Below are positions 10,176 through 58,701 of a stretch of DNA of 64,000 nt, in pieces. The stretch is taken from the NCBI GenBank assembly GCA_964384125.1, contig CAYLKA010000004.1, forward strand, positions 5,576-69,575, written 5' to 3'. Position 1 is the stretch's first letter. Every line of letters begins with the position of its first letter. Source of the DNA: an uncultured Gammaproteobacteria bacterium. GTDB lineage: Bacteria > Pseudomonadota > Gammaproteobacteria > Steroidobacterales > Rariloculaceae. The notes beneath the pieces were generated by a model, which ran no database searches, was not told the DNA's origin, and worked only from the letters and a program-made list of their open reading frames with translations. A program made the position numbers and the translations under genes.

Positions 10176-10553
10176 GTGTTAAGAGCAATAGCTGTTGCCG
10201 TTTTCTCAGTGTCTGTATTAGGTAGTACGTTTGTATTCGCCCATCACGGTGGAAGCATGTATCCCAACCGCGACGACGAGTCGATACTAGAAGATGCGGT
10301 CGTCGGGGAGTTTTTATTCGTTAATCCGCATGCTCGGTTGTTGTTCAGTTGGACGGATGCTGACGGTACCGCTTCTGAATGGGAAGGAGAGCTCAGTGGC
10401 TCGACCGAGCTGGTAAGATCAGGTATCTATGCCAATCTACTTGGAACTGGTGACCGTATTACGGTTAAGGGATATCCGCACAGCTCCATTCCACGAAACT
10501 TGCGCCTGAGTTCAGTCGTTTTACCAGATGGTCGTGAGGTGCCACTGCCTTGA
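10176..10553 (+). CDS. Secreted His-His N-domain protein; stand-alone N-terminal half of the paralogue family (copy 1a)
   Basis: GTG start after a GGAG. Signal peptide ...STFVFA, then HHGGSMY. It contains VGEFLFVNPH...EWEGEL...GDRITVKGYP...VVLPDGREV, which aligns with the N-terminal ~100 aa of ORFs 25070, 30665, 34707 and 57679. From memory it resembles Pfam DUF6152; I have not verified this. Confidence 0.8.
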   Translation: MLRAIAVAVFSVSVLGSTFVFAHHGGSMYPNRDDESILEDAVVGEFLFVNPHARLLFSWTDADGTASEWEGELSGSTELVRSGIYANLLGTGDRITVKGYPHSSIPRNLRLSSVVLPDGREVPLP

Positions 10554-11281
10554 AATCTGGGTCTGATATCTTCAGAGGGCTTGCTCGGTGGGGATGCATG
10601 GTCATCGCCGCAACGGTGATAACGAGCGTCAATGCACAAGAGGGGGCTCTATCAGGGGGATGGGTGATGGATGTCCGCGGGGCTTGGGATGAGCTGGTTG
10701 CGGCTAATTCTGTACAGGAGGTGCTCGCTGAATTCGACCGCGCTGTCGATGATCCAAGCATGCGGTGCGTTCCACCGGGCCTCATTCGATCAGCCGAAAG
10801 TAGAGCTCAGATAGAGATCATTGAGCAGGATCATCAGATTCTGATTCTTTATGAGGCTTTTGGTGTGATTCGTCGAGTACACCTGAATGGCCCTCAAGCA
10901 CCAGAATGGATGCCTCCCTCTCCCGTTGGGTATTCGGTTGGTGTTTGGCAAGGCGATGAGCTTGTGGTCGAGACGACGCACTTGACCCCTCACCTATTAA
11001 ATGACGACGGTTTCCCGTTTGCCGGTCACCCGGACGCTCGAATTATCGAACGGTATCGACCTTCTGGAGATCGTTTGGAGCTCGAGTTTCGCGTGGAGGA
11101 TCCGGTCAATCTTCGTGGGCCAGCCACACGGACCCATACTTTTGATAGGGTGCCCGATTCGATGCTCCTTCATTACCATTGCGATCCGCTTGAAGCGACT
11201 GGCTGGCGTTTACCCGCTACCGGAGACTCGCTTAGGGATCTCCTCCAATGGCTCGAGCTGCGCCCCCCGATACCTGAATAA
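10550..11281 (+). CDS. Secreted C-domain protein; stand-alone C-terminal half of the paralogue family (copy 1b)
   Basis: The TTG start overlaps the upstream stop (TTGA at 10550-10553). It has its own signal peptide (...VITSVNAQ). DPSMRCVPPG, GYSVGVWQGDELVVETTH, IIERY, VEDPV and HYHCDP align with the C-terminal halves of the four fused paralogues. Confidence 0.75.
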   Translation: MKSGSDIFRGLARWGCMVIAATVITSVNAQEGALSGGWVMDVRGAWDELVAANSVQEVLAEFDRAVDDPSMRCVPPGLIRSAESRAQIEIIEQDHQILILYEAFGVIRRVHLNGPQAPEWMPPSPVGYSVGVWQGDELVVETTHLTPHLLNDDGFPFAGHPDARIIERYRPSGDRLELEFRVEDPVNLRGPATRTHTFDRVPDSMLLHYHCDPLEATGWRLPATGDSLRDLLQWLELRPPIPE

Positions 11282-11351
11282 AAACGGATGGTGATGGCTG
11301 CCGTTGGTTTGATCGAGAGAAAATCAGTCCGAGCAGAAGAGAAGATAAAAC

Positions 11352-11594
11352 GTGACGAACTCAAGAACTCGGTTTGACGACACCTGTGAGATCGTGGGTG
11401 TGAAGAACGAGATTGCCGTTACCGGAGAGATTCTCCAGTTTCGCGAACACGACATCATTATTGCGACGATCCATCGTTCGGCTAAGGTCACGTTGCATTG
11501 GCAGGAAAATGTTGATCAGTACGTCGGGTCGATGGGTGGAGTCGAGTTCAAGTCAGAGGGCCCGAAGTCACATACCTATCGAACTACTAGATGA
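11352..11594 (+). CDS. Hypothetical small protein (80 aa)
   Basis: This is only an ORF with a GTG start in a 343-bp gap. I recognise no motif. A competing ORF lies at 11413-11616. Confidence 0.3.
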   Translation: MTNSRTRFDDTCEIVGVKNEIAVTGEILQFREHDIIIATIHRSAKVTLHWQENVDQYVGSMGGVEFKSEGPKSHTYRTTR

Positions 11595-11624
11595 TTGCGT
11601 GCCCTGCCGGTTCTGATTGCCCGG

Positions 11625-12821
11625 CTACCAGCGAAACAGTCGCGTCGCCATGCCTTGTGGGAAAACTTCTTGACCCCGGGGTAGTTCGATAAAGCCATCG
11701 GTACCGGCCAGTGACACGAAGTCGCCGGAGGTATTGGTTGGGTTGGGCTCTGCCACCGCCAAACCGGTGTCATCCGAGTTAAGTTTGACAGGAAGGAAAT
11801 AGACTAGGTCGGCGGAAAACACGACTTCTGTGGCGAGCCGTACTGTCTCGGGGGACTCTGCGTCGAGTCCCATGGCCTGTCTCAGGGCCGGCAAGACATA
11901 ACGCGTGAGGCAGACAAGCGTTGAGACAGGATTGCCTGGTAGCGCAAAGATGGGTTTCGATGCCTTGCTGACACCGAACCACATCGGTCGCCCCGGCCGC
12001 TGTTCGATGCGATGGAAGACCAATTCGACGCCGAGTGTGTCGAGTACCTGAGGGACAAAGTCGTATTGGCCCATGGATACACCGCCACTCAGAATCAACG
12101 TATCGTTTGCGTCGTGCAGTCTCGCGATGGTTTCGAACATAGTTTCCGGATCGTCTTTTAGATTTACTCGGGTCACCCGAGCCTGGGTGTGGCGCAGCAG
12201 GCTCGCTTCGATTGCGCGATCGTTAGAGGATCGGATCTGATAGGGCTGGATCGGCGCTCCTACCTCAACGAGCTCATCGCCCGTGGAAAGGACCGCGATT
12301 TTCGGTGACTTTGTCACCTGGATGTGCGGAAGGCCCGCGCTTGCCAAGATGGCCATCTCTGTCGGGCCGATGGCCAGACCAGACGAGAGTAGCCGGGTGC
12401 CGGCGATCCGATCCGATCCTCGAGGATGGACGAACTGCCTATCCGAGACCTTGGCCGAATCCTCGATTAGCGCGATTGACTGATCCCGTGTAAGGCGTTC
12501 TACAGGTATCACGGTGTCGGCTCCGTCGGGCAGCATGGCACCAGTCATAATCTCGACGCACTCACCGGCATGAATCAGCAGAGGTGGTGCGCCGGCCCCT
12601 TGTGTTCCGATGACACGATAGCGCCGCAATCCTTGATCCCAATCCGAGAACTTGATTGCAATGCCGTCCATCGTTACACGATCGAAGGGCGGTTGGTCGC
12701 GTTCGGCCTCGACGTTTTCTCGCAGTACGGCGCCGGCGGTGTCGCCGAGCAGACGCTCCTCGGACGGCAGAGCCTGCATGCACCCGAGGATCAGGGCCTC
12801 GGCTTCGGCAACGTCTGTCAT
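11625..12821 (-). CDS. moeA: Molybdopterin molybdotransferase MoeA
   Basis: 398 aa. The MoeA pattern includes PPFDRVTMDGIA, TGDELV, QIRSSN, LILSGGVSMGQYDF and ALPGNPVS. Confidence 0.9.
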   Translation of the reverse strand: MTDVAEAEALILGCMQALPSEERLLGDTAGAVLRENVEAERDQPPFDRVTMDGIAIKFSDWDQGLRRYRVIGTQGAGAPPLLIHAGECVEIMTGAMLPDGADTVIPVERLTRDQSIALIEDSAKVSDRQFVHPRGSDRIAGTRLLSSGLAIGPTEMAILASAGLPHIQVTKSPKIAVLSTGDELVEVGAPIQPYQIRSSNDRAIEASLLRHTQARVTRVNLKDDPETMFETIARLHDANDTLILSGGVSMGQYDFVPQVLDTLGVELVFHRIEQRPGRPMWFGVSKASKPIFALPGNPVSTLVCLTRYVLPALRQAMGLDAESPETVRLATEVVFSADLVYFLPVKLNSDDTGLAVAEPNPTNTSGDFVSLAGTDGFIELPRGQEVFPQGMATRLFRW

Positions 12822-20582: not shown

Positions 20583-21356
20583 TCAGCGCTCCACCGTACC
20601 CTGTGTCGCGAATAAGCGGTCGGTAGTCGGCTGAGGAACATCCCAGCCCCTTGCCCAGTAGATGAATGGCGTATCGAAAGCCGCGATGAACACCTTGAAG
20701 AAGTATTTCGCCAGAGCGAGTCGAAAAGCCGTTTCTAGATCGAATATCCCCCACCAGACAATGACGGCATAGAGTACGGTGTCTAGTGCCTGGGACGTGA
20801 TCGTAGACAGATTGTTGCGTATCCACAGGTGCTTTCCCTGAGTCCACTCCTTTACCTTGTGGAAGAGCCAAACGTCGAAGCTCTGACTGATCAGATAGGC
20901 CAACAGCGAACCGAACACGAACCTTGGGGTGAAGTCGAGAATTCTGGAGAAGGCCTGATGAATCTCGCCCGAGAATACGATCGACTCTGGGCGCGAAGAA
21001 GGCAAGTAAAGCAGGCTCATGCTCATCATCACTACGATGATGACGCTCACGCCAAAACCGAGAAGAACGGCTTGATTGGCGACGGCGCGGCCGTACTTCT
21101 CGCCCAGTAGGTCGGTCGCGAAGAAAATACTGGAGTAGAAGATTACACCCAGGCTGGTCTCCATGCCCAAGATCACCGTCAGTTTCGGACCCTGCAAGTT
21201 GGCTAACAGGATCGCGAGCACGATCGCTGCGGTCAGTCCCAGCCGGCCAAACAGACGGTAAAGGAGAAGCGTCATGGACAGATCGAGCGCGAGCGTGATC
21301 AGCCACAGTAAATCCTGGTTCTGGTGAAAGAATGAGACTACCGAATCAGGAATCAT
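20583..21356 (-). CDS. yhhQ: Queuosine-precursor transporter (YhhQ/DUF165, VUT family)
   Basis: The ORF extends to 21413. I prefer ATG 21356. It is a multi-TM protein with the YhhQ pattern SQSFDVWLFHKVK...HLWIRNNLSTITSQALDTVLY. Confidence 0.75.
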   Translation of the reverse strand: MIPDSVVSFFHQNQDLLWLITLALDLSMTLLLYRLFGRLGLTAAIVLAILLANLQGPKLTVILGMETSLGVIFYSSIFFATDLLGEKYGRAVANQAVLLGFGVSVIIVVMMSMSLLYLPSSRPESIVFSGEIHQAFSRILDFTPRFVFGSLLAYLISQSFDVWLFHKVKEWTQGKHLWIRNNLSTITSQALDTVLYAVIVWWGIFDLETAFRLALAKYFFKVFIAAFDTPFIYWARGWDVPQPTTDRLFATQGTVER

Positions 21357-21468
21357 GAAACCTTGTGTCCAGATGAGAATCCAAGGGATCAAGCGGGTTT
21401 CCGGAGGTCTCAAACCTGGATCAGTGAAGGTTTCGGACCCACTCGTCGGATCGGTTAGTATATTCGAG

Positions 21469-22518
21469 ATGAGTAGCCGCGTAACTCAATTGACGAACAC
21501 CGGCGACGTGAAGGACGTTTGGGGCCGTTTATTGCGTGATTTGCGGATCTCTGTCATTGATCGGTGTAATTATCGATGTCCCTATTGCATGCCCGCCGAA
21601 GTCTACGGCGAAGGGTATGAATTTCTCCCAAGGCGCCATTGGCTGACGCCCGGAGAGATCAAACGAATCGCCGGGTTGTTTATGCAGCTCGGTGTCACGA
21701 AGTTGCGGGTAACCGGGGGCGAGCCCCTCCTCCGTCGCGATATTGTCGAGATCGTGAGTGCACTGAAAGAATTGCACGGGCTCGACCTGGCTCTTACCAC
21801 TAACGGGACCCTGCTTGCTGAGCGTGCGGAGGAGCTTAAGGCGGCCGGCTTGAACCGAATAACCATCAGCCTTGACAGCTTAGACGAGGTTGTTTTTAAG
21901 GAGATGAGCGGCGACAAGGGTGATGTCTCAAGCGTGCTCGAGGGGATCGAGGTGGCCCGCGATGTTGGGTTGTCACCGATCAAGCTCAACGTGGTCGTAC
22001 AGAAGGGCAAGAACGATCACACCGTCTTGGATCTGGTAGATCATTTTCGTGGCTCTGGTGCCATCGTACGATTCATCGAATATATGGATGTGGGTACTTT
22101 GAATGGCTGGCGTATGGATGAGGTCGTCGCGTCGCGTACGCTCATGCAGCAGATCTCGGATCGCTGGCCGTTAAAGCCAGTTGAGCCAAACTATCGCGGC
22201 GAGGTGGCGCGGCGCTACGTATTCGAGGATGGGCAGGGCGAGGTTGGATTTATCTCGTCGGTGAGCGAGCCCTTTTGCGGTGATTGTCACCGGGCACGAC
22301 TGTCTGCAGACGGCACTATCTACACCTGCTTGTTCGCTAGGCATGGTATCTGCGTGCGTGAACACATCCGCGGGGGTGCCAGTGACGCAGATCTTATCGG
22401 CCTTTTACAGAATCTATGGCGGCATCGTACCGACCGCTACAGCGAGGAGCGCGGTAAGGACGGGGGGGAGGAAAAGACGCCCAAGCCGCGAATCGAGATG
22501 TACAGGATGGGCGGTTGA
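21469..22518 (+). CDS. moaA: GTP 3',8-cyclase MoaA (radical SAM)
   Basis: The ORF starts at 21355. I prefer ATG 21469. It has the radical-SAM cluster CNYRCPYC, the C-terminal cluster CGDCHRARLSADGTIYTC and a terminal GG. Confidence 0.92.
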   Translation: MSSRVTQLTNTGDVKDVWGRLLRDLRISVIDRCNYRCPYCMPAEVYGEGYEFLPRRHWLTPGEIKRIAGLFMQLGVTKLRVTGGEPLLRRDIVEIVSALKELHGLDLALTTNGTLLAERAEELKAAGLNRITISLDSLDEVVFKEMSGDKGDVSSVLEGIEVARDVGLSPIKLNVVVQKGKNDHTVLDLVDHFRGSGAIVRFIEYMDVGTLNGWRMDEVVASRTLMQQISDRWPLKPVEPNYRGEVARRYVFEDGQGEVGFISSVSEPFCGDCHRARLSADGTIYTCLFARHGICVREHIRGGASDADLIGLLQNLWRHRTDRYSEERGKDGGEEKTPKPRIEMYRMGG

Positions 22519-22992
22519 ATGCTAACCCATGTCGATGAGGCGAACCGCCCTACTATGGTTGACGTCGGTGATAAGGTCGTGACGCGGCGAACTGCAAGCG
22601 CCCGTGCCGTGGTGGTGTTTCCTGAGGAAACCTTGAAGAGTCAAGGGGATGTGCTGCAAACCAAGAAGGGTCCGGTGATCGACACTGCGATCGTTGCCGG
22701 TGTAATGGCCGCAAAACGGACGCACGAGCTGATTCCGTTCTGTCATCCCATCCCGCTCGAAGATTGTGCGATCACGATTGACTGGAACGCCGAGCGGGAG
22801 TTAGTCATTCAGTGTTCCGTGCGCGCAACCCATAAGACAGGGGTCGAAATGGAGGCGCTCACCGGTGCGTCCGCAGCCGCATTGACGGTCTATGATATGT
22901 GCAAGGCACTGTCCCACGGCATTCGGATTCGTGAATTGTCGCTGGTGTCCAAGACCGGTGGTAAGGCTGACTACGCCGAAGCGTTGAAGTAA
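22519..22992 (+). CDS. moaC: Cyclic pyranopterin monophosphate synthase MoaC
   Basis: 157 aa; the ATG immediately follows the moaA stop. The MoaC pattern is LTHVD...MVDVGDK, LIPFCHP and [24 protein letters not shown]. Confidence 0.93.
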
Positions 22993-22996
22993 AGCG

Positions 22997-23239
22997 ATGA
23001 TCGGTGTGACGGCAAAGTACTTCGCAGTTTTCCGGGAGCAGGCCGGGCAAGACACCGAACCGCTGTCCACTTATGCGACCACTGCGGGGGAGCTCTTTGT
23101 CGAGATCGCTACCCGTCACGGTTTCGCTGATCCGATGGCGCGTTGCAAGGTCGCGATCAATGACGAGCTTGCGGGTTGGGAAGAGAAGATCTCCGAGGGG
23201 GATGTCGTTTTGTTCTTCCCGCCGGTTGCCGGAGGCTGA
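22997..23239 (+). CDS. moaD: Molybdopterin synthase sulfur carrier subunit MoaD
   Basis: 80 aa with a ubiquitin-like fold pattern (YFAVFREQAG). The C-terminus ends in GG. Confidence 0.85.
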   Translation: MIGVTAKYFAVFREQAGQDTEPLSTYATTAGELFVEIATRHGFADPMARCKVAINDELAGWEEKISEGDVVLFFPPVAGG

Positions 23240-23245
23240 TCGGCT

Positions 23246-23698
23246 TTGAATCGATCGACGTTTGAAATCACCGACCGAGCGATTGACACCACCGAGCTGA
23301 CCGAGCGGCTGCGGAGCGATTCTGCGGGCGCGTACGCATCTTTCGAAGGTTGGGTTCGGAACTTGAACGAGGGTCAGGACGTGACTGCTCTAGAGTATGA
23401 GGCCCACGGCCCTGTTGCTGTCAGCGAGGGCGAAAAAATTCTGGCCGAGGCGCGAGAGCGTTTTGGTTTATTGGCAGCCTCGAGTTTTCATCGAGTGGGT
23501 CGACTAGAGATCGGCGACTGTGCGGTGTGGGTGGGAGTGAGCGCGGCCCATCGAGGCGTAGCCTTCGATGGGTGTCGTTACATTATTGATGAGCTCAAGC
23601 AGCGTCTACCAATATGGAAGAAGGAGCATTACAGGGACGGACACTCGGACTGGATTAACTGTCTGACCAGCCAGAGCGGGAAGCAGGGCAGTGCATAG
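23246..23698 (+). CDS. moaE: Molybdopterin synthase catalytic subunit MoaE
   Basis: 150 aa with a TTG start. The MoaE pattern is GAYASFEGWVRN...LEYEAH...VSAAHRGVAF...LPIWKKEHY. Confidence 0.88.
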   Translation: MNRSTFEITDRAIDTTELTERLRSDSAGAYASFEGWVRNLNEGQDVTALEYEAHGPVAVSEGEKILAEARERFGLLAASSFHRVGRLEIGDCAVWVGVSAAHRGVAFDGCRYIIDELKQRLPIWKKEHYRDGHSDWINCLTSQSGKQGSA

Positions 23699-23701
23699 CC
23701 A

Positions 23702-24325: not shown

Positions 24326-24506
24326 CCGGAGACTATAACGCAGGTCCCAAAGCCAGGAACGTTGCATAACTTGAATCCCTGCCGTGTAACTATAAAAGTT
24401 TCCGTAGGATGCCTGCTGCCATCGCGTCTCGGTTGTGGAATCGGTTAGTCTATGCGGGCGTTCCGAATGTCCTACTAATAAGATAGAAGCGCGAACACGG
24501 GAATCA

Positions 24507-25069: not shown

Positions 25070-26197
25070 ATGGCTGTAAAACAGTGGAGTGGCCTCTTGC
25101 TCGTTGGAATGTGTCTTGCGAGCGTGACTTCGTCCGCGCACCACGGCGGGTCCGTATACGATACGTCGGGGCCGGTCACACTTCGCGGTCAGGTGCCGCA
25201 GTTCGGGTTTGTGTTTCCACACGTGTGGGTCTACTTCGCCGTGCAGGGGGGAGAGGGGCCCACCGTGGAGTGGTCGGGTGAGCTGACCACGCCGCTTCGG
25301 CTGGCGCGTGGCGTTGGTGGTGGTGGGGCTTCGAATGATGTTCGCTGGACGACCGAGACGCTTCAGCCCGGTGACTTGTTGGAGGTCACGGGTGACCCAG
25401 CTCGAAACGGGGCTCCCTCGATGCGCATTCGCAGGATCGTCGACGCGACCGGTCAGGCGCTCCTTGGCGGTAACGAAGGAGATGTGCGCACCGCGACCTC
25501 GGTTGAATCGGCTGCTCCCGAGTCGGTATCCGGTGTGGACCTAAGCGGTGTCTGGATGCGCCGCTACAACGCCTCATACCAGAACTATGCTTTTACCGAA
25601 GACCCGCCGTCCATGACGGCTTGGGCGAGGGAGCGGTTCGAGGCGACGAAGCCGACGTTCGGCCCACGCGGCGTCGCGGTCGTCGAGACCAATGATCCGG
25701 CGTACCAGTGCCTACCGCCCGGGACTCCGCGCATTTATGCTCATCCCGCCCCGTTCGAGATCGTCCATACGCCTGACCGAGTAATACTCGCTTACGAATA
25801 CCAAAACCGGGTGCGACACGTTTTCACCGATGGCCGAGAGCATCGCGAAGGCCGGCCACCCACGTGGATGGGAGAATCGATAGGACGCTGGGAAGGTGAG
25901 ACCCTCATCGTCGACACACGGAACTTCAATGATCAGACTTGGCTCGATCGTCGGGGGTTGCCGCACAGTGACCAGTTGCGCGTGCTAGAGCGTATCAGCC
26001 GAAGCGGCGAGAATGGGTTGACTATCGAGATTACGGTCGAGGACCCTGTGGCGTTTCCAAATCCCTGGACTGCACGGCGAGTCTTCGAGAGAGTCGACTG
26101 GCGGCTCGAGGAGAGCGTCTGCCTCGATAACGCTTCGTTCTCGGAATACGAGCGATCCTTGCTCGATTACAGCGGGGATTCCGCCTCGAGCCAATAA
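25070..26197 (+). CDS. Secreted two-domain His-His protein, paralogue 2 (function unknown)
   Basis: GAGGAG Shine-Dalgarno. Signal peptide ...SVTSSA, then HHGGSVYD. The N-domain has FVFPHVWVYF...VEWSGEL...GDLLEVTG. The C-domain has DPAYQCLPPGTPRI, GESIGRWEGETLIVDTRNF, GLPHSD, LERI, VEDPV and ESVCLD. Confidence 0.85.
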   Translation: MAVKQWSGLLLVGMCLASVTSSAHHGGSVYDTSGPVTLRGQVPQFGFVFPHVWVYFAVQGGEGPTVEWSGELTTPLRLARGVGGGGASNDVRWTTETLQPGDLLEVTGDPARNGAPSMRIRRIVDATGQALLGGNEGDVRTATSVESAAPESVSGVDLSGVWMRRYNASYQNYAFTEDPPSMTAWARERFEATKPTFGPRGVAVVETNDPAYQCLPPGTPRIYAHPAPFEIVHTPDRVILAYEYQNRVRHVFTDGREHREGRPPTWMGESIGRWEGETLIVDTRNFNDQTWLDRRGLPHSDQLRVLERISRSGENGLTIEITVEDPVAFPNPWTARRVFERVDWRLEESVCLDNASFSEYERSLLDYSGDSASSQ

Positions 26198-26224
26198 GAC
26201 CGATCACCTTTATCCGGAGGCCTC

Positions 26225-28558: not shown

Positions 28559-28577
28559 AGCAACCGACCAAGGAAAA

Positions 28578-29549: not shown

Positions 29550-29576
29550 TTCTATTGATTAATCACACTTGAAATT

Positions 29577-30665
29577 ATGGTTGAAGGTAGCGTGAGAAAA
29601 ATAACAATCGGTCTAATCGCAACGCTTCTATTCAGTTCATTGGTTTTTGGCCAAGCACCCCAACTGCGTCGCTCAGTTGTTGGAGAAGAGCCCGTCTGGA
29701 CCATAACCCACATTAATGGGGGGGTGTACAGGGCCTCCACAAACAATCATGGCACTGTATTTTTGGTAACCCAGGACGGAATAGTTTTGGCGGATCCGTT
29801 GAGTCTTGAGTTTTCGGTATGGCTTAAAGGGGAGTTTGAGACACGATTTGAAGTTCCTGTTAAGTATGTGGTCTACAGCCACTACCATTGGGATCATGCT
29901 TCGGGGGGAGAGGTTTTTGCAGACACTGCTCGGTTTGTTGGTCATGCCAATATGCTGTCCTATCTGGAGATGCCCCCATCCTCAACTACCTTGCAACAGG
30001 TTATTGGTCAGTATCAGCCTGTAGCCGCTTTGGATGCCAACGGTAATGGTGTTATTGATCAGAGCGAAGTTCCGGATGATTTTCAGCGTTTCCCAGGGTC
30101 AGCCCAGAGCCAGTTCGAAGGTTTCGATGAAGACGAGGACGGTGTTTTGAGTGGTGCTGAGGTGGTTCGTGGGCCTCTGCGTTTCGTCCACCCCCCCGAC
30201 ATCCGTTATTCAGACGAATTCCAGATCAGCCTGGGCGGTAAGCGGGTGAGGTTGACTTGGGTTGGAGACATGAATCATTCCAGTGATACGAGCCTGATTA
30301 CCTTTCCGGATGACGACGTGATGCTAATTGTCGACTATGTGTCGCAACGGCTTCCGAATAGGGAGATGGATTACGAGCTTGGAAAATTTCCGGAATGGAT
30401 GTCCGCGATTCGACTAACGGAGGAGATGGCCAAAGAGTTTCAGTTCGTTGCGACAGGACACGGACCCGTGGGTGACTGGGAGGACGTTAGCGCGTGGCGC
30501 GAGTACCTTGAAAAGCTTCGGGACGCGGTTGCCACAGGGATTGCTACCGGCCAGACATTGGAGGATATGCAGCGCGATATCACGATGGACGAATACAGTG
30601 ACTGGGAAGGTTTCGATTGGGTTGATGAGAACGTCCTCGGGATGTACCACTTCCTGACCGACTGA
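29577..30665 (+). CDS. Exported MBL-fold metallo-hydrolase with an inserted pair of EF-hand-like loops
   Basis: 362 aa with a signal peptide. The MBL motif is SHYHWDHASGG, with later H/D ligands. Two canonical 12-residue EF loops are DANGNGVIDQSE (30033-30068) and DEDEDGVLSGAE (30126-30161). Confidence 0.82.
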   Translation: MVEGSVRKITIGLIATLLFSSLVFGQAPQLRRSVVGEEPVWTITHINGGVYRASTNNHGTVFLVTQDGIVLADPLSLEFSVWLKGEFETRFEVPVKYVVYSHYHWDHASGGEVFADTARFVGHANMLSYLEMPPSSTTLQQVIGQYQPVAALDANGNGVIDQSEVPDDFQRFPGSAQSQFEGFDEDEDGVLSGAEVVRGPLRFVHPPDIRYSDEFQISLGGKRVRLTWVGDMNHSSDTSLITFPDDDVMLIVDYVSQRLPNREMDYELGKFPEWMSAIRLTEEMAKEFQFVATGHGPVGDWEDVSAWREYLEKLRDAVATGIATGQTLEDMQRDITMDEYSDWEGFDWVDENVLGMYHFLTD

Positions 30666-31714
30666 TGGGGAAGGGCATGCTATTGAAAACTTTAGCTATC
30701 ACCGTCGTGGCTTTCGTATTCACCTCGCTTGCTCACGGTCACCACAGCGATGCGGGTCTCGACATGGAGTCCCCTGTCACCCTTGAGGGGACCGTTACCG
30801 AGTTCAACTGGAGAAATCCCCACGTCTACTTTGGTGTAGAAACCACCGACGGGACGGAGTGGGAGGTACAGATGGGCTCGACCATCGTCCTTTCTCGTAT
30901 GGGCTGGACGCGCGAGTCTTTGGACATCGGTGACCAGGTGACCGTTGCGGTGTACGCAGCGCGCAATGGGCGCCCCTACGGCTTGATCAACGGTGTGGAG
31001 AAGGAAGGCGGTCTCGCTTTACCTGGGTCGTTCGACAGTGCGACTGCTGAGCCCCTTTTAAACGCACCCGCTCCGACCGGAAGCACATCGACTCTCGACG
31101 GTATCTGGTTGTCGGATGTCTCCGAACTCGTCAGTTACCCGGGTGGACTCGACGGGCTCTTTAACGCGTTGTTGAATGTCACCGAGAAGGGGCGTGCTGC
31201 GCAGGCTGCTTATTCTGAGATCTCAGAACAAAACCCCGGTGCAAATTGCATCGGCTTCCCGACCCCGACCATTATCATCCTTACGAACCTCTATCCGCTT
31301 CAGATCCAGATAAACGCGGACGAGGAAACGGTTTCGATACGAAGTGAGTTCTATGATGAGGAGCGAACGGTCTATATGGACGGCCGGACGCATCCCGGCG
31401 TGGGTGAGCGTACACATTCCGGGCATTCGATCGGTTGGTGGGAGGGCGACACTCTGGTGGTGGACACTACGAACTTTGCTGATCATCGTTCGCCTTACCA
31501 GATCGGTCTCCCTTCTGGAGTCCAAAAACATGTCGTTGAACGCTACACGCTGACCGATGACGGCACTCGTATTATCGTTGAGTTTATGCTTGAGGATCCG
31601 GAGTACATCTCAGTGCCGATGACGCACAGGCGGGAACTGATCTACTCTCCGCAGATGGAGTTGTCCGCCTTCGACTGTGATCCAGAGGCGACACGACGTT
31701 TCCTGCCACGATAA
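30665..31714 (+). CDS. Secreted two-domain His-His protein, paralogue 3 (function unknown)
   Basis: The ATG overlaps the upstream stop (TGATG). Signal peptide ...FTSLA, then HGHHSDAG. The N-domain has GTVTEFNWRNPHVYF...EWEVQ...GDQVTVAVYA. The C-domain has NPGANCIGFPTP, GHSIGWWEGDTLVVDTTNF, GLPSG, VERY, LEDPE and AFDCDP. Confidence 0.87.
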   Translation: MGKGMLLKTLAITVVAFVFTSLAHGHHSDAGLDMESPVTLEGTVTEFNWRNPHVYFGVETTDGTEWEVQMGSTIVLSRMGWTRESLDIGDQVTVAVYAARNGRPYGLINGVEKEGGLALPGSFDSATAEPLLNAPAPTGSTSTLDGIWLSDVSELVSYPGGLDGLFNALLNVTEKGRAAQAAYSEISEQNPGANCIGFPTPTIIILTNLYPLQIQINADEETVSIRSEFYDEERTVYMDGRTHPGVGERTHSGHSIGWWEGDTLVVDTTNFADHRSPYQIGLPSGVQKHVVERYTLTDDGTRIIVEFMLEDPEYISVPMTHRRELIYSPQMELSAFDCDPEATRRFLPR

Positions 31715-34706: not shown

Positions 34707-35756
34707 GTGAGATACGCTAGGTTTCTGCTCGTCGGGCTGGTCCTTTCAACTGGCGTGCTAGCACACCATTCCCCCAATCTACACTTCGATAGGGACGACA
34801 TTGCGGAAGTCACTGGTGATATCACCGATGTGGCTTGGCGTAATCCTCACACCGAGATCACGGTCATCGTAGTGGGTGAGAATGGAGAGGAGATTGAGTG
34901 GCTGGTGGACACTCGGGGTGCGACCCAGTTTTTGCGCGCTGGCCTTGATCAGGAAGCGTTCAAGGTAGGAGATTCTATTCAAGTCGCTGGTTTTCGTGGC
35001 CGACGCAATCGAAACGCCATCTTCTCCACGAATATTCTGCTCAGTGACGGACGGGAACTGGTTGCCGATAACTTCGCTGAGCCCCGTTGGGCCCCGTCTC
35101 GTGCGGTAAATCTGGTATTACGCGATCAGACGTTGCCGTCCGCCGCGGACCTGCCGAGCGAGGTGGAAGGCATCTTCCGTGTGTGGGGCCGTGCTCGCTC
35201 GAGCTATGGGATACAAGGCACAGGTCGATCCCTGTGGAAGGACAGCTACCCACTGACGGAGCGCGCCCGGGTCACTCAGGCGGCTTGGGATCGTGTCGTG
35301 GACAACCCTTACATCAGCTGCGGTACTGGCATGCCGGCTATCATGGATCTCACCACGCCTATGGAATTCATTCAGGAAGGCGGGGACATCGTGTTGTACC
35401 TGGAGGAGCAGGACTCTGTCCGCCGGATCCACATGACAGATACGGAGGCTCCCCGCCAGGCTGCTGCAACTCCCATGGGTTATTCCACTGGTCGTTGGGA
35501 CGGTGAGACGTTGGTAGTGACCACAACGCATGTCGGTTGGCCGTGGTTTGATCAGAGCGGCGTGCCTCAAACAGAAGCGGTGGAGTTTGTAGAACGCTTT
35601 GCACCCAGCGCGGACGGCCGGATTCTGACCTATGAGATCATCGTGACTGATCCAGAGACCTTCACGGAGCCGGTTTTATTGGAGAGGCATTGGGTCTGGG
35701 AGCCGACTCTGCAGAGGAGACCATACAACTGCGTGTGGGAACGGAACGACCTATAG
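34707..35756 (+). CDS. Secreted two-domain His-His protein, paralogue 4 (function unknown)
   Basis: GTG start after GGAGGG. Signal peptide ...STGVLA, then HHSPNLHF. The N-domain has GDITDVAWRNPHTEI...EWLVD...GDSIQVAGFR...LLSDGRELV. The C-domain has NPYISCGTGMPA, GYSTGRWDGETLVVTTTH, GVPQTE, VERF, VTDPE and PYNCVW. Confidence 0.87.
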   Translation: MRYARFLLVGLVLSTGVLAHHSPNLHFDRDDIAEVTGDITDVAWRNPHTEITVIVVGENGEEIEWLVDTRGATQFLRAGLDQEAFKVGDSIQVAGFRGRRNRNAIFSTNILLSDGRELVADNFAEPRWAPSRAVNLVLRDQTLPSAADLPSEVEGIFRVWGRARSSYGIQGTGRSLWKDSYPLTERARVTQAAWDRVVDNPYISCGTGMPAIMDLTTPMEFIQEGGDIVLYLEEQDSVRRIHMTDTEAPRQAAATPMGYSTGRWDGETLVVTTTHVGWPWFDQSGVPQTEAVEFVERFAPSADGRILTYEIIVTDPETFTEPVLLERHWVWEPTLQRRPYNCVWERNDL

Positions 35757-50722: not shown

Positions 50723-51667
50723 ATGATCCATAATCTCTTGCACGAGACGTCCGCCGATTCCGGGGCGCGCCTATCGAAGGATTCGAAGGTGGTCGTGGAT
50801 CGCTTTCTCGACGCGATCTGGGCCGAACGCGGTCTGTCCGAGAACACCCTCAAGGCGTATCGCGCGGATCTGCTTGCCCTTAACCAGCGTCTGGAGGGTC
50901 GTAAGGTTGATCTGGTGTGCGTGACGCGGGCTGATCTCCTCGAATACATCTCTTGGCGCGTGGACGGTGGCGCGAAGCCCCGGTCCACAGCGCGCCAGCT
51001 ATCCAGCTTCCGGCGTTTTTTCCGCTATCTTCTGCGTGAAGGTGTGATTGCTGAGGATCCGACTACACAGATCGCCATGCCGAAGATCGGCCGGACGCTT
51101 CCTCAGTCATTGACTGAGGAAGAGGTTGAAGCCTTGCTCGCCGCCCCTGTGGTCTCGGATCCCCTGGGGCACAGAGATCGGGCTATGCTCGAACTCCTCT
51201 ATGCCACGGGGGTACGGGTGTCGGAGCTCATCAACCTTAAGCTGTCCCAGGTCAACCTGAACCAGGGTGTGCTTCGTATCATCGGAAAGGGTGATCGGGA
51301 AAGGCTCATTCCGCTCGGCGACGAGGCTCAGGACTGGGTCAAGAAATTCATCGACGGTCCGCGCGTCAATATTTTGCTCAAACGCCAGACCGAGTACCTG
51401 TTCCCCACCGGGCGAGGCGATCGTATGTCGCGCCAGGCTTTCTGGCACATTATCAAGCGCTACGCTATGAAAGCGTGTATTGGCAAAATACTTTCACCCC
51501 ACACGGTCAGACACGCTTTCGCTACTCACTTACTCAACAACGGCGCCGATCTGCGGGTCGTGCAGCTCTTGCTGGGACACAGTGACGTTTCCACGACCCA
51601 GATTTACACTCACGTTGCCCGGGAGCGCATGAAAGAGCTGCACTCCAGGCATCATCCCCGGGGCTAG
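50723..51667 (+). CDS. xerD: Site-specific tyrosine recombinase XerD
   Basis: 314 aa with FLDAIWAERGLSENTLKAYRADL. The catalytic residues lie in ...ATGVRVSEL..., HTVRHAFATHLL, LLGHSDVSTTQIYTHV. It is followed by dsbC, as in enterobacteria. Confidence 0.9.
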   Translation: MIHNLLHETSADSGARLSKDSKVVVDRFLDAIWAERGLSENTLKAYRADLLALNQRLEGRKVDLVCVTRADLLEYISWRVDGGAKPRSTARQLSSFRRFFRYLLREGVIAEDPTTQIAMPKIGRTLPQSLTEEEVEALLAAPVVSDPLGHRDRAMLELLYATGVRVSELINLKLSQVNLNQGVLRIIGKGDRERLIPLGDEAQDWVKKFIDGPRVNILLKRQTEYLFPTGRGDRMSRQAFWHIIKRYAMKACIGKILSPHTVRHAFATHLLNNGADLRVVQLLLGHSDVSTTQIYTHVARERMKELHSRHHPRG

Positions 51668-51706
51668 ATACTCCAGGCATCATCCCCGGGGCTAGATACT
51701 CCAGGC
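51643..51706 (+). repeat. 28-bp tandem direct duplication spanning the xerD stop codon (2 full copies plus 8 nt)
   Basis: CTCCAGGCATCATCCCCGGGGCTAGATA occurs at 51643-51670 and identically at 51671-51698. CTCCAGGC follows at 51699-51706 before the sequence diverges. Confidence 0.95.
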
Positions 51707-51779
51707 GTGATGCTGGATCTGTTAGGATTAGTCAAAGCTCTCTGAGGGTTTCTCGAGAGTCGAGGGTCCGGACATCCGA

Positions 51780-52529
51780 ATGCTTCAGTCTCTTAGGGAG
51801 ATTACAGTGCAAGCCAAATGGTTATTAACTCTCCTCGCTATGATGGCTACCGCTTCGTCGGGCCAGGAGAACGAGGCTCTCAGCAAAGAAGAGCTTGCTG
51901 CGACGTTGCCAGGCGTTGAGGTCCAGGACATCAACGACACACCCATCCCCGGTATGTATGAGGTGGCTGTCGGTCCCCAGGTGGCGTATGTGTCTGATGA
52001 TGGTCGTTACTTCATCCAGGGCGATCTCTATGACCTGGATTCGAATCAGAACTTGACCGAGCAGCGACGCGCCCGAGCGCGCGTGGACGTCCTCGCTGAA
52101 ATCGACCCGTCGACTATGATCGTTTTTAGCCCGGCTCCAGAGGATGTGAAGCACACTGTTACGGTGTTCACCGACATCGACTGCGGTTATTGCAGACAGC
52201 TGCACCGCGAGATGGACCAGGTCAATGCCCTCGGAGTCGCTGTCCAGTACGTTGCTTACCCGAGAACTGGGCCCGATACGGACTCCTGGGATAAGGCTGA
52301 TCGAGTCTGGTGTGCTCCCGATCGCAACACAGCGTTCACCGAGGCTACTCTGGCCGGCAAGCTACCGGAGGAGAGCTGTGACGCAACGCCAGTTGCAGGC
52401 CATTACGATTTCGGCCATCTCGTCGGTGTTCGTGGCACCCCGACCGTGCTCACAAACGAGGGGGTTCATTTAGGTGGTTACCTGGCGCCACAAGATTTGT
52501 TTGCCCAACTTGAAGCGCTAGCCGACTGA
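51780..52529 (+). CDS. dsbC: Thiol:disulfide interchange protein DsbC
   Basis: 249 aa with a signal peptide. It has the thioredoxin active site DIDCGYCRQLH and the second Cys pair (WCAP...ESCD). Confidence 0.88.
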   Translation: MLQSLREITVQAKWLLTLLAMMATASSGQENEALSKEELAATLPGVEVQDINDTPIPGMYEVAVGPQVAYVSDDGRYFIQGDLYDLDSNQNLTEQRRARARVDVLAEIDPSTMIVFSPAPEDVKHTVTVFTDIDCGYCRQLHREMDQVNALGVAVQYVAYPRTGPDTDSWDKADRVWCAPDRNTAFTEATLAGKLPEESCDATPVAGHYDFGHLVGVRGTPTVLTNEGVHLGGYLAPQDLFAQLEALAD

Positions 52530-52555
52530 CCCGAGTAACGCAAACCTCCCGATCT

Positions 52556-54388
52556 ATGCCGCGGGCACCCGCCCGCCGCCTGCAGGGGTTCCAGATGGAC
52601 CGAACACCACGTGCGGGCGCGATCGTCACATTCATCGCTCTAGGTCTTGGCATTGGATCGACCGGGAGTTCCCAGGAGTCGGCCGATCCCGACGTCATCG
52701 TCGTCGGTGCGGGTATTTCTGGCCTGGCCGCCAGCCTGGAGGCAGCGCAAGAGGGAGTGCGCGTACAAATCGTCGACATGTGGTCCGTATTCGGAGGCCA
52801 TGCGGTCATGTCCGGCGGTGGCGTAGCCATCGTTGGCTCGGATCTGCAGCTCGAGATGGGAATTGTGGATTCTCCTGAGATTGCCACTCAGGATTTCTTC
52901 GAGTGGGGTGAAGATCCCGACCCCTACTGGGTGGACTATTACGCTCAACACTCCAGGATCGAGTTGGGGCAGTGGCTAGAGTCCCTTGGTGTCCGATGGA
53001 CCGGCGTCAATCCGCAATTCGGCAATAGTGTGCCTCGCTTCCATCGTACTAACGGTCGTGGTCTGGGGCTGGTCACGCCGATCTACCGACAAGTGTTGCG
53101 CTACCCGAATGTGAACTTTCGCTGGAATTTCAAGATCAGCGGATTGCTGGTGGAGGAAGGTCGCGTTGTCGGCGTTCGGGGAGAGGACTTGAGAACTGGA
53201 GAAAGCGCCGAACTGCGCGCCGGCCATGTTTTGTTGGCGACTGGTGGATTTCAGAGCAACATGGAGATGGTGCGGCGTTTTTGGCCCGCCGACCTCGCTG
53301 AGCCGAGCGATCTTCTCGTTGGCTCGGGCCTCAACTCCGAGGGCTCAGGTCACGAGCTGGCGCAGGCAGTGGGTGCCGCCTTTCATCGTATGGATCATCA
53401 GTGGAATTACCCCTGGGGTCTGCCTCACCCGCATTATCCTGGAGAGGGTCGTGCACTCGCCTCCAGAAATTCCGTATCAATTTGGATAAATGCTGACGGC
53501 GAGCGTTTCGTTAACGAGCTCGATGACACGAAGTCGACCCTCGCCGCCGTCGTGGCACAGGCGCCGTCCACCTACTGGGCTATCTTCGATGATGACGACA
53601 ACGAGAATTTCTACGTCTCCGGAAGCGGCTGGGATGACTATCAGCGAATTCGCAAGGAGATCCTCGACAACCCCGAGCTGACCACGCAGGCTGCATCGCT
53701 AGCTGAGCTTGGCAGAGCGATCGACCAGGATCCCGTGAAGCTCGAAGCGACGGTCGCCAGGTTTAACGCGATGATCGACAGCGGTGTCGATGAGGATTTT
53801 GGTCGTTTCGGCGCCGAAGACGAACTTTCGCCGTTGGCCAGTATTGATCAGCCACCGTTTTACGCTATCCAGTTTTTCCCAATGACTCGCAAGAGCATGG
53901 GAGGCGTGGCGGTGGATGGCGAAACTAGGGTCATTCGTGAGGACGGCAGCGTGATTCCGGGGCTCTATGCTTCGGGCGAATTGACAGGGTTCGCGGGAGT
54001 CAACGGTTCCGCTGGTCTTGAAGGCACGTTCCTCGGGCCGGCTATTCTCACCGGTCGCGTAGCGGGACGAACGTTGGTTCGAGACGTCGGTGACAATCGG
54101 GAACTCGAAGCTCCGATCCCCGGTCTCCTCGCACAGGACTTTCCGTCACAGGAGTTCTCATCGCTCGATGTCGGGACCTGTAATGCTTGTCACAACTTGT
54201 CCGAGGCCGTAAGCGAACCGCGATCCGGATACGGGCACTTTGAGCGTGTGCACAGTATCGTTCTGGATGAACAACAGAATTGTGGAGACTGCCACGCTGG
54301 GCTTGCCCCCTACAGTCCACTAAACCATGAGATCGATAGCGTCGCTCAGACGGCCAGCTGCGTCCATTGTCACTTGGTGGTCGAATAA
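52556..54388 (+). CDS. Exported FAD-dependent oxidoreductase (fumarate reductase/KstD-like FAD_binding_2 type) with a C-terminal three-CXXCH domain
   Basis: 610 aa (alternative start ATG 52595). The FAD dinucleotide motif is DVIVVGAGISGLAASLEAA, followed by LYASGELTGF. The last ~70 aa carry CNACH, CGDCH and CVHCH (54179-54385), plus extra His residues. Confidence 0.8.
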   Translation: MPRAPARRLQGFQMDRTPRAGAIVTFIALGLGIGSTGSSQESADPDVIVVGAGISGLAASLEAAQEGVRVQIVDMWSVFGGHAVMSGGGVAIVGSDLQLEMGIVDSPEIATQDFFEWGEDPDPYWVDYYAQHSRIELGQWLESLGVRWTGVNPQFGNSVPRFHRTNGRGLGLVTPIYRQVLRYPNVNFRWNFKISGLLVEEGRVVGVRGEDLRTGESAELRAGHVLLATGGFQSNMEMVRRFWPADLAEPSDLLVGSGLNSEGSGHELAQAVGAAFHRMDHQWNYPWGLPHPHYPGEGRALASRNSVSIWINADGERFVNELDDTKSTLAAVVAQAPSTYWAIFDDDDNENFYVSGSGWDDYQRIRKEILDNPELTTQAASLAELGRAIDQDPVKLEATVARFNAMIDSGVDEDFGRFGAEDELSPLASIDQPPFYAIQFFPMTRKSMGGVAVDGETRVIREDGSVIPGLYASGELTGFAGVNGSAGLEGTFLGPAILTGRVAGRTLVRDVGDNRELEAPIPGLLAQDFPSQEFSSLDVGTCNACHNLSEAVSEPRSGYGHFERVHSIVLDEQQNCGDCHAGLAPYSPLNHEIDSVAQTASCVHCHLVVE

Positions 54389-56930: not shown

Positions 56931-57040
56931 TCTTGAAGGCTTTCACGACCGTGCGCTGATGGCCTTCCCGACAGACGAAATGCCCGGTGGCTAGTCATAG
57001 CTATGATAGCCTCTGAACGGGATCCCTGTGGAGAGTAGTC

Positions 57041-57553
57041 ATGCTGTATAGAAAAAAAATGATCATTTCGAGGTGGTTTTTAGGACCACTAATTTGCCTG
57101 CTTATTTCTGCGCTTTTGCCGATGATCTCCTCAGCTGCCGATCCGCTGGTTCGGGAGCACCTGATCGATGAACGCGGTGAATTGCGGGCTTTTTCGCGTG
57201 CAGTGACTACCGAGGGGGGGAGAATAGTCTGGTTGGCAGGTCAAACGGCCACCATCGACTCTGGTGGCAACTTGTTGGCTGGCGATTTCGAGGCCCAGAC
57301 TCGTGAAATTTTCCGTATTCTCGACGAGCGGCTGCGGCAGTTCGATGGGACGTTGTCGGATATCGTTACTATGACCGTCTATATCAACGATGTTCGCAAC
57401 GGTGACGTTTTCGTCGATATCCGGAAGGAGCATTTCGAGGCCGGACGTTACCCGTCGAGTGCGTTGATTACCGTGGTGGGATTCGCTCGCCCGGAGATTA
57501 TGATCGAGATCAAGGCGACTGCCGTGGTTGGTGAGGAGGCGGGGATAGAGTGA
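57041..57553 (+). CDS. RidA/YjgF family protein with Sec signal peptide (exported)
   Basis: 170 aa. Signal peptide ...LLPMISSAADP. The RidA core is RIVWLAGQTA...AQTREIFRILDERL...LSDIVTMTVYI...PSSALITVVGFARPEIMIEIKATA. Confidence 0.8.
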   Translation: MLYRKKMIISRWFLGPLICLLISALLPMISSAADPLVREHLIDERGELRAFSRAVTTEGGRIVWLAGQTATIDSGGNLLAGDFEAQTREIFRILDERLRQFDGTLSDIVTMTVYINDVRNGDVFVDIRKEHFEAGRYPSSALITVVGFARPEIMIEIKATAVVGEEAGIE

Positions 57554-57678
57554 GGGGGAGCGCCGGCGACTTGATTTCTGCGTCCGAAGTCCGGAACCTG
57601 AAACCCTGAGCCGTTCTGGGCGGGAAGTGTGCGACTCTGTCGCTGCGATAAGGCGTCCGGGCATCGGGAGGGGGAGAT

Positions 57679-58701
57679 ATGAAAAGACTGATTGGAAAAC
57701 GGCTAGGATTCATCTTCGGTCTGCTCGGGTTCGCTCTGCCGCTTCCAGGTCAGACTCACCATGCGTTTTCAGGTGTCTTTGACATGGACAATCTCACTGA
57801 GCTTGAAGGTGAGATCACGCGTCTGATGTGGCGTAACCCTCACGTGCAGTTCACGATGCGAGATGCTAACGGTGAGTTGTGGGATATCGAAACCAACTCT
57901 GTAAGTATCCTCAGCCGTATGGACGTGAGCGCGGAGCTCCTCGCAGAGGGTGATCGGATCACGGTCGCCGGATACGCTGCTCGGAGTGGCGCCAACGCAA
58001 TGTGGATCAACCATGTTCTTCTCTCAGACGGGCGAGAGCTTGTCACGCGCCCCGGCGTTGAACCCCATTGGGCGAGCGAGCATCTAGGCGTGTCGGAGAC
58101 CTGGTTAGCCGGCGGTTTCGAAGGCGGGGCGGAGCAGGGGATCTTCCGCGTCTGGAGCACGCGTTTCAACGGCCCCGGTCGTTACATGGGTCTACCCGAG
58201 TATCCGCTGACCGCCTCTGCGTCAGCCGCCCAGTCGGCGTTCGATCCGCTTGCAGACGATCCCATCGGCGACTGCACGCCAAAAGGCATACCGTGGATTA
58301 TGCAGCAACCCTATCCCGTCGCCTTTTCTCGGAGTGATGAAGACATACTGTTCCACATTGAGGAGTACGACCTCGTTCGTACCATCCACATGGACCCGTA
58401 TGCCGTGGATGAAGATGCCCCCCCAAGTCTTCTGGGGTACTCCGTGGGTCGGTGGGACGGAGACGATCTAGTGGTGTATACACACTCGGTCGATTGGTAT
58501 CACTTTAACTCGAGCGGAATTCCTCAGAGTGCCGAGGCGCAGTTCGAAGAACGGTTCTCCTTGAGCGACGGCGGGGCTAATCTTGATTACACGGTGATCG
58601 TCACCGATCCGCAGACGTTCACAGAGCCAGTGACCATGAGAAAACAATGGGTCTGGCGGCCGGGCGAAACAGTCAAGCCCTACGAGTGTACAAACTATTG
58701 A
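57679..58701 (+). CDS. Secreted two-domain His-His protein, paralogue 5 (function unknown)
   Basis: GGGAGGGGGA Shine-Dalgarno. Signal peptide ...ALPLPGQT, then HHAFSGVFD. The N-domain has GEITRLMWRNPHVQF...LWDIE...GDRITVAGYA...LLSDGRELV. The C-domain has DPIGDCTPKGIP, GYSVGRWDGDDLVVYTHS, GIPQSA, EERF, VTDPQ and PYECTN. Confidence 0.87.
   Translation: MKRLIGKRLGFIFGLLGFALPLPGQTHHAFSGVFDMDNLTELEGEITRLMWRNPHVQFTMRDANGELWDIETNSVSILSRMDVSAELLAEGDRITVAGYAARSGANAMWINHVLLSDGRELVTRPGVEPHWASEHLGVSETWLAGGFEGGAEQGIFRVWSTRFNGPGRYMGLPEYPLTASASAAQSAFDPLADDPIGDCTPKGIPWIMQQPYPVAFSRSDEDILFHIEEYDLVRTIHMDPYAVDEDAPPSLLGYSVGRWDGDDLVVYTHSVDWYHFNSSGIPQSAEAQFEERFSLSDGGANLDYTVIVTDPQTFTEPVTMRKQWVWRPGETVKPYECTNY

Follow-up and report, generated by a model that had tools for sequence, protein, structure and literature searches.

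Five paralogues of a predicted periplasmic two-domain protein couple an N-terminal His-His DUF6152 module to a barrel of predicted calycin-like fold

The 64,000-nucleotide stretch analysed here (the window), part of a contig from an uncultured gammaproteobacterium of the Rariloculaceae, encodes five paralogues, A to E, of a two-domain protein that joins an N-terminal DUF6152 (domain of unknown function) module of about 100 aa to a C-terminal module of about 200 aa. The predicted signal peptide of every copy is followed by two consecutive histidines, and the C-terminal module is predicted to adopt a calycin-like fold. The reading that we favour, tentatively, is that of a stand-alone periplasmic two-module protein, in which an N-terminal-histidine metal head would be combined with a small-molecule-binding barrel and which would have diversified by paralogy.

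The first-pass annotation of this DNA, made from the sequence alone, had described five paralogues of a Sec-exported two-domain protein, and this description stood. The six open reading frames (ORFs) that it listed for them were all confirmed on the + strand (Table 1). Pairwise BLASTP comparisons covering both domains were significant (B-C, 3e-30; C-E, 7e-34; D-E, 2e-72; B-E, 3e-22), and the split halves of copy A matched the corresponding halves of the other copies, at 7e-12 to 7e-8 for the N-module gene (A_N) and 4e-20 to 4e-14 for the C-module gene (A_C). Identities among the window paralogues are 26-40%, the nearest window paralogue of copy E being D (40%), and tblastn of every copy against the whole window found no sixth member. 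The five-way alignment, which extends over both domains, reproduced the motifs that had been aligned by eye at first pass and revealed exactly two Cys, at equivalent positions, in each mature protein. Signal peptides were judged by simple features: a basic n-region, a hydrophobic stretch and small residues at -3 and -1. All copies have these features ahead of the His-His, with a 10-residue Kyte-Doolittle hydropathy of 2.4-2.9 for the hydrophobic stretch, suggesting that they are exported by the Sec pathway.

As had been anticipated for the N-domain, all five copies match the Pfam family DUF6152 (PF19649), with E-values of 3e-13 to 4e-22 and scores of 50-79 bits against a gathering cut-off of 27 bits. 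Residue conservation was counted over 346 distinct N-domains, which share no more than 20-35% identity overall. All 335 complete sequences have His-His at the mature N-terminus; the other 11 are without exception gene calls truncated at the 5' end. The N-P-H turn, which lies at a constant spacing of 25-26 residues from the His-His, carries its His in 343/344 and its Pro in 344/344 of the domains; the conserved Trp is present in 316 and the Gly of G-D in 342 of the 346. The N-domain motifs read from the five window copies thus hold across the family. In 122 of the 131 N-domains encoded by the sampled loci (defined below), the His-His directly follows an A-x-A-type cleavage site, residue -1 being A in 91, G in 21 and S in 6, and residue -3 being A in 72, V in 22 and S in 10. 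The cleavage site ahead of the His-His was placed by the -3/-1 rule, and His1 of the mature protein is accordingly a predicted residue. The N-domain is N-terminal throughout: the proteins that seemed to carry it internally, or to have the order C then N, proved to be over-extended ORF calls that hold an internal Met and a signal peptide, followed by the His-His.

The sequence hallmark of the histidine brace is an N-terminal His with a second His (PMC10952591), and an N-terminal His freed by signal-peptide cleavage correctly pointed to metal binding in DUF4198, DUF6702 and Ang-1/2 (anglerases), which were recognised as metalloproteins on this ground (PMC12537917). DUF6152 has His as residue 1 of the mature protein, as placed by the -3/-1 rule, and, in the His of the N-P-H turn, a second conserved His that could complete a brace. 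The resemblance to histidine-brace proteins is limited to this signature in the sequence. The signal-strapping study and its supplements (PMC12537917) do not list DUF6152, and none of the papers found by our literature searches, motif-string searches included, mentions it. Searches of PDB sequences with the N-domain profile returned no meaningful match, and no conserved Met was found in the N-domain alignment. In the AlphaFold2 (AF2) model of copy C, the N-terminal part (aa 32-113) forms a five-strand barrel with one helix, which Foldseek matched in the PDB to the oligonucleotide-binding (OB) domain of lysyl-tRNA synthetases.

The C-domain is without a name in the databases searched. The window C-domains gave no Pfam match at E<=1, except for a sub-threshold hit of copy C to Pab87_oct (E 0.14), and no match in NCBIfam; a Pfam scan of 80 diverse C-domain proteins returned nothing at E<=0.01; and searches of PDB sequences, by phmmer with a single sequence and by profile, gave no meaningful match. 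These results agree with the first-pass statement that no function had been assigned to the fused architecture. The AF2 model of full-length copy C reached a predicted local distance difference test (pLDDT) score of 83.8 and a predicted template modelling (pTM) score of 0.80, and that of the stand-alone A_C a pLDDT of 78. In the copy C model the C-barrel (aa 146-327) consists of one strand, several short helices and eight antiparallel strands. All top Foldseek matches of the isolated domain in the PDB were fatty-acid-binding proteins (FABPs), cellular retinol- or retinoic-acid-binding proteins (CRBPs, CRABPs) or other intracellular lipid-binding proteins (iLBPs), with E-values of 3e-5 to 1e-3, a target-normalised TM-score of about 0.6, a root-mean-square deviation (rmsd) of 6-7 A and about 12% identity, all for a predicted model. 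The domain shares with the iLBPs the G-x-W signature of the first strand, and the helical insert and eight antiparallel strands of the predicted model may correspond to the iLBP barrel with its helix-turn-helix between strands A and B. The C-domain is, however, about 60 residues larger, bears the marks of an exported, disulfide-stapled protein, has a different set of invariant residues (R, G-x-S-x-G-x-W, E-R and D-P) and has no sequence relationship to the iLBPs: there was no match to Pfam Lipocalin (PF00061), and hhalign of the C-profile against human FABP4 gave a probability of 0.9%. The model therefore points to a calycin/FABP-like fold in a protein that is not a member of the FABP family.

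The C-domain motifs also hold family-wide, as counted over 502 distinct C-domains. The calycin G-x-W motif of the first strand has its G in 357/371 and its W in 383/385; within G-x-S-x-G-x-W the first G is present in 499/499 and the S in 474/499; the R of R-x-[VI] was counted in 486/494, the E of E-R in 490/498 and the D of D-P in 491/497. No conserved His, His cluster or three-His site was found in the alignment. The two Cys, conserved in 485/487 and 461/462, would join the helical insert to the C-terminal tail. They probably form a periplasmic disulfide, as had been proposed at first pass; the conservation above 99% and the presence in the window of a gene for the disulfide isomerase DsbC are consistent with it.

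Database searches show the family to be very large. More than 2,273 relatives of the fused protein are present in a 90%-clustered database, the C-domain profile retrieved 15,249 50%-identity clusters at E<=1e-3 (8,950 at E<=1e-10), and the N-domain profile more than 6,600 90%-identity clusters, among which N-only proteins of about 138 aa predominate. The C-domain stands alone in C-only proteins of about 220-290 aa, follows an N-domain in N+C fusions of about 340-375 aa and occurs twice in tandem C-C proteins of 450-530 aa. Genomic context was sampled in 80 loci from GTDB species genomes, covering uncultured Gammaproteobacteria (including Ca. Rariloculaceae, Woeseiaceae, Steroidobacteraceae and Arenicellaceae), Acidobacteriota (Vicinamibacterales) and Rhodospirillaceae. 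With the window this makes 81 sources, six of them without a called member, in which 184 proteins matched the N- or the C-domain profile: 91 N+C, 53 C-only and 40 N-only. The fusion order was N then C in 91/91. Adjacent gene pairs were found in both orders, 13 N-then-C and 10 C-then-N, and 22 of 36 N-only genes in the 80 loci adjoin a C-domain gene, as do all three N-only genes sampled independently from other metagenomes (each with a C-only neighbour). Fusion together with this recurrent adjacency is a classic sign of modules that act jointly, and the pTM of the fused copy C model also supports their coupling. They are the only partners seen repeatedly.

Copy A, in which the two modules are encoded separately, represents a true two-gene form. 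A_C begins at a TTG that overlaps the stop of A_N by 4 nt (TTGA) and is preceded, 10 nt upstream, by GAGG. The same N|C gene pair is kept in three other loci (L001, L010 and L083), in L001 with the identical 4-nt overlap, and the stand-alone A_C belongs to an orthologue group of 236-245 aa with 59-95% identity. The alternative of a frameshifted pseudogene was ruled out: the two-gene form is kept elsewhere, both genes encode a signal peptide of their own and a ribosome-binding site stands before the TTG. The exact A_N sequence is present at NCBI as MED5535381.1, a 'DUF6152 family protein' of a marine Pseudomonadota metagenome-assembled genome (MAG), and the members of its cluster come from Tara mesopelagic samples.

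Table 1. Positions of the family members, of window genes discussed in the text and of related features in other loci (window positions unless a locus is given; mature N-termini and signal peptides are predicted)
Feature	Position	Strand	Length (aa)	Details
Copy A, N-module gene (A_N)	10176..10553	+	125	DUF6152 E 2.9e-13, 50.2 bits; signal peptide aa 1-22; mature His-His 10242-10247; N-P-H His 10329-10331
Copy A, C-module gene (A_C)	10550..11281	+	243	Own signal peptide; Cys codons begin 10766 and 11180
Copy B	25070..26197	+	375	Fused N+C; DUF6152 56.2 bits; His-His 25139-25144; N-P-H-type His 25220-25222; Cys codons 25709, 26120; C-domain ~25472-26176
Copy C	30665..31714	+	349	Fused N+C; DUF6152 E 4e-22, 78.6 bits; His-His 30740-30745; His53 30821-30823; Cys codons 31247, 31676
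Copy D	34707..35756	+	349	Fused N+C; DUF6152 57.4 bits; His-His 34764-34769; His 34848-34850; Cys codons 35319, 35730
Copy E	57679..58701	+	340	Fused N+C; DUF6152 53.6 bits; His-His 57757-57762; His 57841-57843; Cys codons 58273, 58687
Same-strand run with B, C and D	25070-36772			
Dihaem cytochrome c and PQQ-dependent dehydrogenase genes	7601-10136	+		Overlap 20 nt
Exported MBL-fold protein	29577-30665	+		
Recombinase, DsbC and flavocytochrome genes	50723-54388	+		DsbC 51780-52529
RarA/MgsA protein	5349-6692	+		
Molybdenum-related genes	221-2104, 3464-4561, 11625-12821, 21355-24715, 38583-39113			
MobA-like ORF	23702-24715	-	337	
GNAT acetyltransferase ORF	24435-24986	+		
Module X	L003:15503-16453	-		
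Module X	L002:7684-8454			
Module X	L008:6408-7070			
Module X	L020:6872-7615	-		
Module X	L079:7928-8683	-		
Module X	L083:8748-9413			
C-only array	L081:6120-16858		272-316	
QEGHPLKGSW-x-GTW protein	L084:3430-3825		131-151	
QEGHPLKGSW-x-GTW protein	L096:3396-3851		131-151	

Three further arrangements were observed outside the window. A second secreted module, which we call X (about 200 aa; no Pfam match for the one member scanned separately, in L003), is fused behind DUF6152 in L003, stands beside N-only genes in L008, L020 and L079, and follows an N/C pair in L083; the window holds no module X. That X might be a divergent C-domain was ruled out by hhalign (probability 0.1%). This pairing gives DUF6152 the look of a modular head whose partners can be exchanged. 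On a forest-soil contig (L081), ten secreted C-only paralogues follow one another, the run being interrupted by two small membrane-protein genes (about 170 aa), directly downstream of a Czc-type resistance-nodulation-division (RND) efflux operon (CzcB-like membrane fusion protein, ACR_tran and OEP). In two unrelated metagenome contigs a conserved small secreted protein with the motif QEGHPLKGSW-x-GTW and no Pfam match is encoded directly upstream of an N+C gene, which its own gene overlaps; the window contains no equivalent of it.

The window copies lie among exported hydrolases and redox proteins. Copies B, C and D share a same-strand run that reads B, penicillin amidase, polysaccharide deacetylase, metallo-beta-lactamase-fold protein (MBL), C, dihaem cytochrome c, DoxX, RidA, RidA, D and MBL, the start of C overlapping the stop of the MBL gene upstream; a RidA gene precedes copy E; and the genes of a dihaem cytochrome c and a pyrroloquinoline quinone (PQQ)-dependent dehydrogenase lie directly upstream of copy A. 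The first-pass annotation had seen in these copies a candidate for an undescribed system, with RidA, MBL and cytochrome c as the neighbours to survey, and had held that the proposal would fail if the neighbours were not conserved in other genomes. Conservation was examined in three ways, by all-against-all clustering of 1,243 ORFs from the 80 loci, by Pfam scans and by phmmer, and no conserved partner emerged. The 102 operonic neighbours in these loci span 111 Pfam families, the commonest of which, MBL, was counted five times; phmmer with the window neighbours found MBL in 11/80 loci, PQQ dehydrogenase in 8/80 and RidA in 2/80, and cytochrome c and penicillin amidase in 0/80. An association with TonB-dependent receptors (TBDRs), suggested by L083, was rejected, as only 6/80 loci have one. 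The sole syntenic relative is a close one, XB_MAG81 (L018), where the order is MoaE, MobA, B, MBL, C, RidA, RidA, D, MBL, MogA, TBDR. The idea of a conserved periplasmic pathway built by these genes could draw support from the same-strand cluster, with its exported hydrolases, RidA and cytochrome c, and from the synteny of MBL, RidA and the B, C and D orthologues in L018, yet synteny is confined to that relative, which itself lacks the amidase, deacetylase, cytochrome c and DoxX. We consider such a multi-gene system very improbable and rejected it in favour of a protein without fixed partners.

The five copies had also been taken for a lineage-specific expansion, which was not borne out. Each window copy has in L018 an orthologue at 71-76% identity (B 71%, D 73%), as opposed to the 26-40% seen among the window paralogues, indicating that the duplications are old. 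L018 has extra family copies, at least two copies are present in 44 of the 81 sources (nine within 20 kb in one of them), and multi-copy clusters occur in Gammaproteobacteria, Acidobacteriota and Rhodospirillaceae. Judged from these sequences, expansion is a general property of the family and not of this lineage.

In the reading that we favour, each copy would work on its own in the periplasm, its two modules acting jointly. Module 1, DUF6152, would be a small OB-like beta-barrel in which signal-peptidase cleavage leaves the His-His as the first residues, and these, with the invariant His of the N-P-H turn, would most likely build an N-terminal-histidine metal-ion site of a histidine-brace-like or X-His-like kind; the metal could be copper, nickel or zinc, which the sequence does not distinguish. 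Module 2 would be a calycin/FABP-like beta-barrel in which a helical insert follows the first strand and the putative disulfide staples this insert to the C-terminal tail; it would most likely hold a small organic ligand. The whole protein may then be a periplasmic binder or carrier, or a metal-assisted ligand handler, whose specificity would have diversified through old paralogy outside any fixed operon. Several results weigh against this reading. C-only and tandem C-C proteins, which lack an N-module, are abundant, so the barrel is not strictly dependent on the His-His head. The likeness to FABPs is one of fold only, given the rmsd, identity and hhalign values above. The near-invariant polar residues of the barrel (R, S, T, E-R and D, in more than 500 domains) would be expected of a common chemistry, at an enzyme or cofactor site for instance, more than of carriers whose ligands vary. 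Metal-homeostasis genes are not enriched near family members in the Pfam scans of the 102 operonic neighbours, and the N-terminus of the copy C model has low pLDDT, the signal peptide having been included in the modelled sequence.

Among the other explanations, we give most weight, while considering it rather unlikely, to a pure organic-ligand carrier, in which the calycin barrel would shuttle hydrophobic or amphipathic molecules through the periplasm in the manner of FABPs, lipocalins and VtrC, DUF6152 would serve for docking or oligomerisation, and its His would be structural or pH-sensing instead of metal-binding. The exclusively FABP-type Foldseek matches of the C-domain, the C-only and C-C forms and the ten-member C-only array that lack an N-module, and the diversified paralogues beside varied exported catabolic enzymes would all fit such a carrier, but docking alone explains poorly three near-invariant His of which two are always at the processed N-terminus, and the pairing of the N-module with the unrelated module X argues for an autonomous N-module function. 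The N-terminal His signature would instead be expected of a ZinT- or CopC-like metallochaperone or metal scavenger that loads exported metallo-hydrolases (MBL, deacetylase, peptidases, sulfatases) or supplies a scarce metal. MBL is indeed the most frequent neighbour, stands directly beside C and D and is kept in L018, many neighbours are metalloenzymes, and ZinT itself pairs a His-rich stretch at its N-terminus with a calycin-like domain. The MBL association is nevertheless seen in only about 14% of the loci, no metal transporters or regulators recur nearby, the barrel has no conserved His cluster and there is no ZinT match in Pfam. This explanation appears less likely than the carrier.

Two bolder explanations place chemistry at the N-terminal histidines. 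DUF6152 could represent a new class of periplasmic histidine-brace-like centre on an OB-like barrel, docked or fused to interchangeable modules (the C-barrel or X) for metal-dependent small-molecule processing; the pair might then act, for example, as a copper oxygenase or peroxygenase, or handle metallophores, and would be very abundant among the Gammaproteobacteria and Acidobacteriota of sea and soil. We rank this proposal, which is a doubtful one, after the metallochaperone. A redox enzyme, in which a histidine-brace copper centre on the N-module oxidises a substrate held by the barrel (as an oxygenase or peroxygenase) with electrons from cytochromes c or PQQ dehydrogenases, comes last of these in our estimation and is improbable. 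It would account for the N-terminal His and second His that define the brace in sequence (PMC10952591), for the shared chemistry that the near-invariant polar barrel residues suggest, and for the placement of copy A behind the cytochrome c/PQQ dehydrogenase pair and of copy C ahead of a dihaem cytochrome c, PQQ dehydrogenase genes being found in 8/80 loci. It is at odds with the lack of cytochrome c neighbours in all 80 loci, with the occurrence of the barrel without the N-module in many genomes, with the absence in Foldseek of any structural likeness to the folds of lytic polysaccharide monooxygenases (LPMOs) or CopC, and with assays in which other N-terminal-His DUFs showed neither oxidase nor peroxidase activity (PMC12537917).

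The genes are already catalogued as DUF members and so are not undiscovered. The Pfam model, however, covers only the N-module of about 100 aa. Searches of Pfam and of the literature turned up neither the C-module of about 200 aa nor the fusion, the invariant processed His-His or the pairing of N and C genes; nor did the C-domain family, the N/C module logic, the invariant His-His or module X come to light in Pfam, NCBIfam or that literature. Membership in the FABP/lipocalin, ZinT and CusF families was rejected at the sequence level by profile scans and hhalign. ZinT/YodA, a periplasmic protein with a calycin-like barrel and a His-rich mature N-terminus (HGHHSH in E. coli), invites comparison with copy C, which reads A-H-G-H-H-S; there was, however, no ZinT match in Pfam or NCBIfam, the barrel lacks a three-His site, and the His-His sits on a separate, predicted OB-like domain. 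The Cu(I)/Ag(I) chaperone CusF is likewise a small periplasmic five-strand barrel, and its hhalign alignment with the N-profile was topologically plausible over 86 columns, placing the invariant Trp on Trp44 of CusF, but at a probability of only 9.9%; DUF6152 has no conserved Met ligands like those in the His/Met/Met/Trp metal site of CusF, and its candidate His ligands are N-terminal. With the N-terminal-His metalloproteins (the brace of LPMO, CopC and YcnI; DUF4198, DUF6702 and the anglerases) it shares a signal peptide followed by His1 and a second invariant His (PMC10952591, PMC12537917). It differs from them in its predicted OB-like barrel, which is not an immunoglobulin-like fold or beta-sandwich, in having two consecutive N-terminal His and in that its metal binding is putative.

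Other genes of the window were also recorded. Molybdenum-related genes are abundant and include a molybdate-type ATP-binding cassette (ABC) transporter (ABC_tran+TOBE and permease), XdhC, MoeA, MoaA, MoaC, MoaE, a MobA-like nucleoside triphosphate (NTP) transferase and a MogA/MoaB-like protein; none of the window ORFs scanned was identified as a molybdoenzyme gene. The MobA-like ORF overlaps an opposite-strand GNAT acetyltransferase ORF by about 280 nt and, since its MobA domain begins only at residue 145, is probably over-extended at the 5' end. In the exported MBL-fold protein whose gene overlaps the start of copy C, an insert contains two canonical EF-hand-type calcium loops, DANGNGVIDQSE and DEDEDGVLSGAE, which were read from the translation, Pfam giving Lactamase_B only. 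The DsbC gene lies with those of a XerC/D-type tyrosine recombinase and of a flavocytochrome (FAD_binding_2 with a C-terminal cytochrome c7-like domain). For the RarA/MgsA protein, NCBI assigns identical or near-identical copies to SAR202, Gemmatimonadota and Pseudomonadota MAGs, which suggests that one population is inconsistently binned in public data.

These proteins belong to a very large uncharacterised family with multiple copies in uncultured bacteria that are abundant in sea and soil. The C-barrel, itself a large domain family, lacks a Pfam or NCBIfam model and could receive one, and the invariant processed His-His with its third His provides a concrete and testable hypothesis of metal binding. 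Should the metal-plus-ligand reading prove wrong, the family would still be a major unexplained periplasmic component in these lineages; should it prove right, it would bring a new fold and a two-module logic to the few N-terminal-His metalloproteins.

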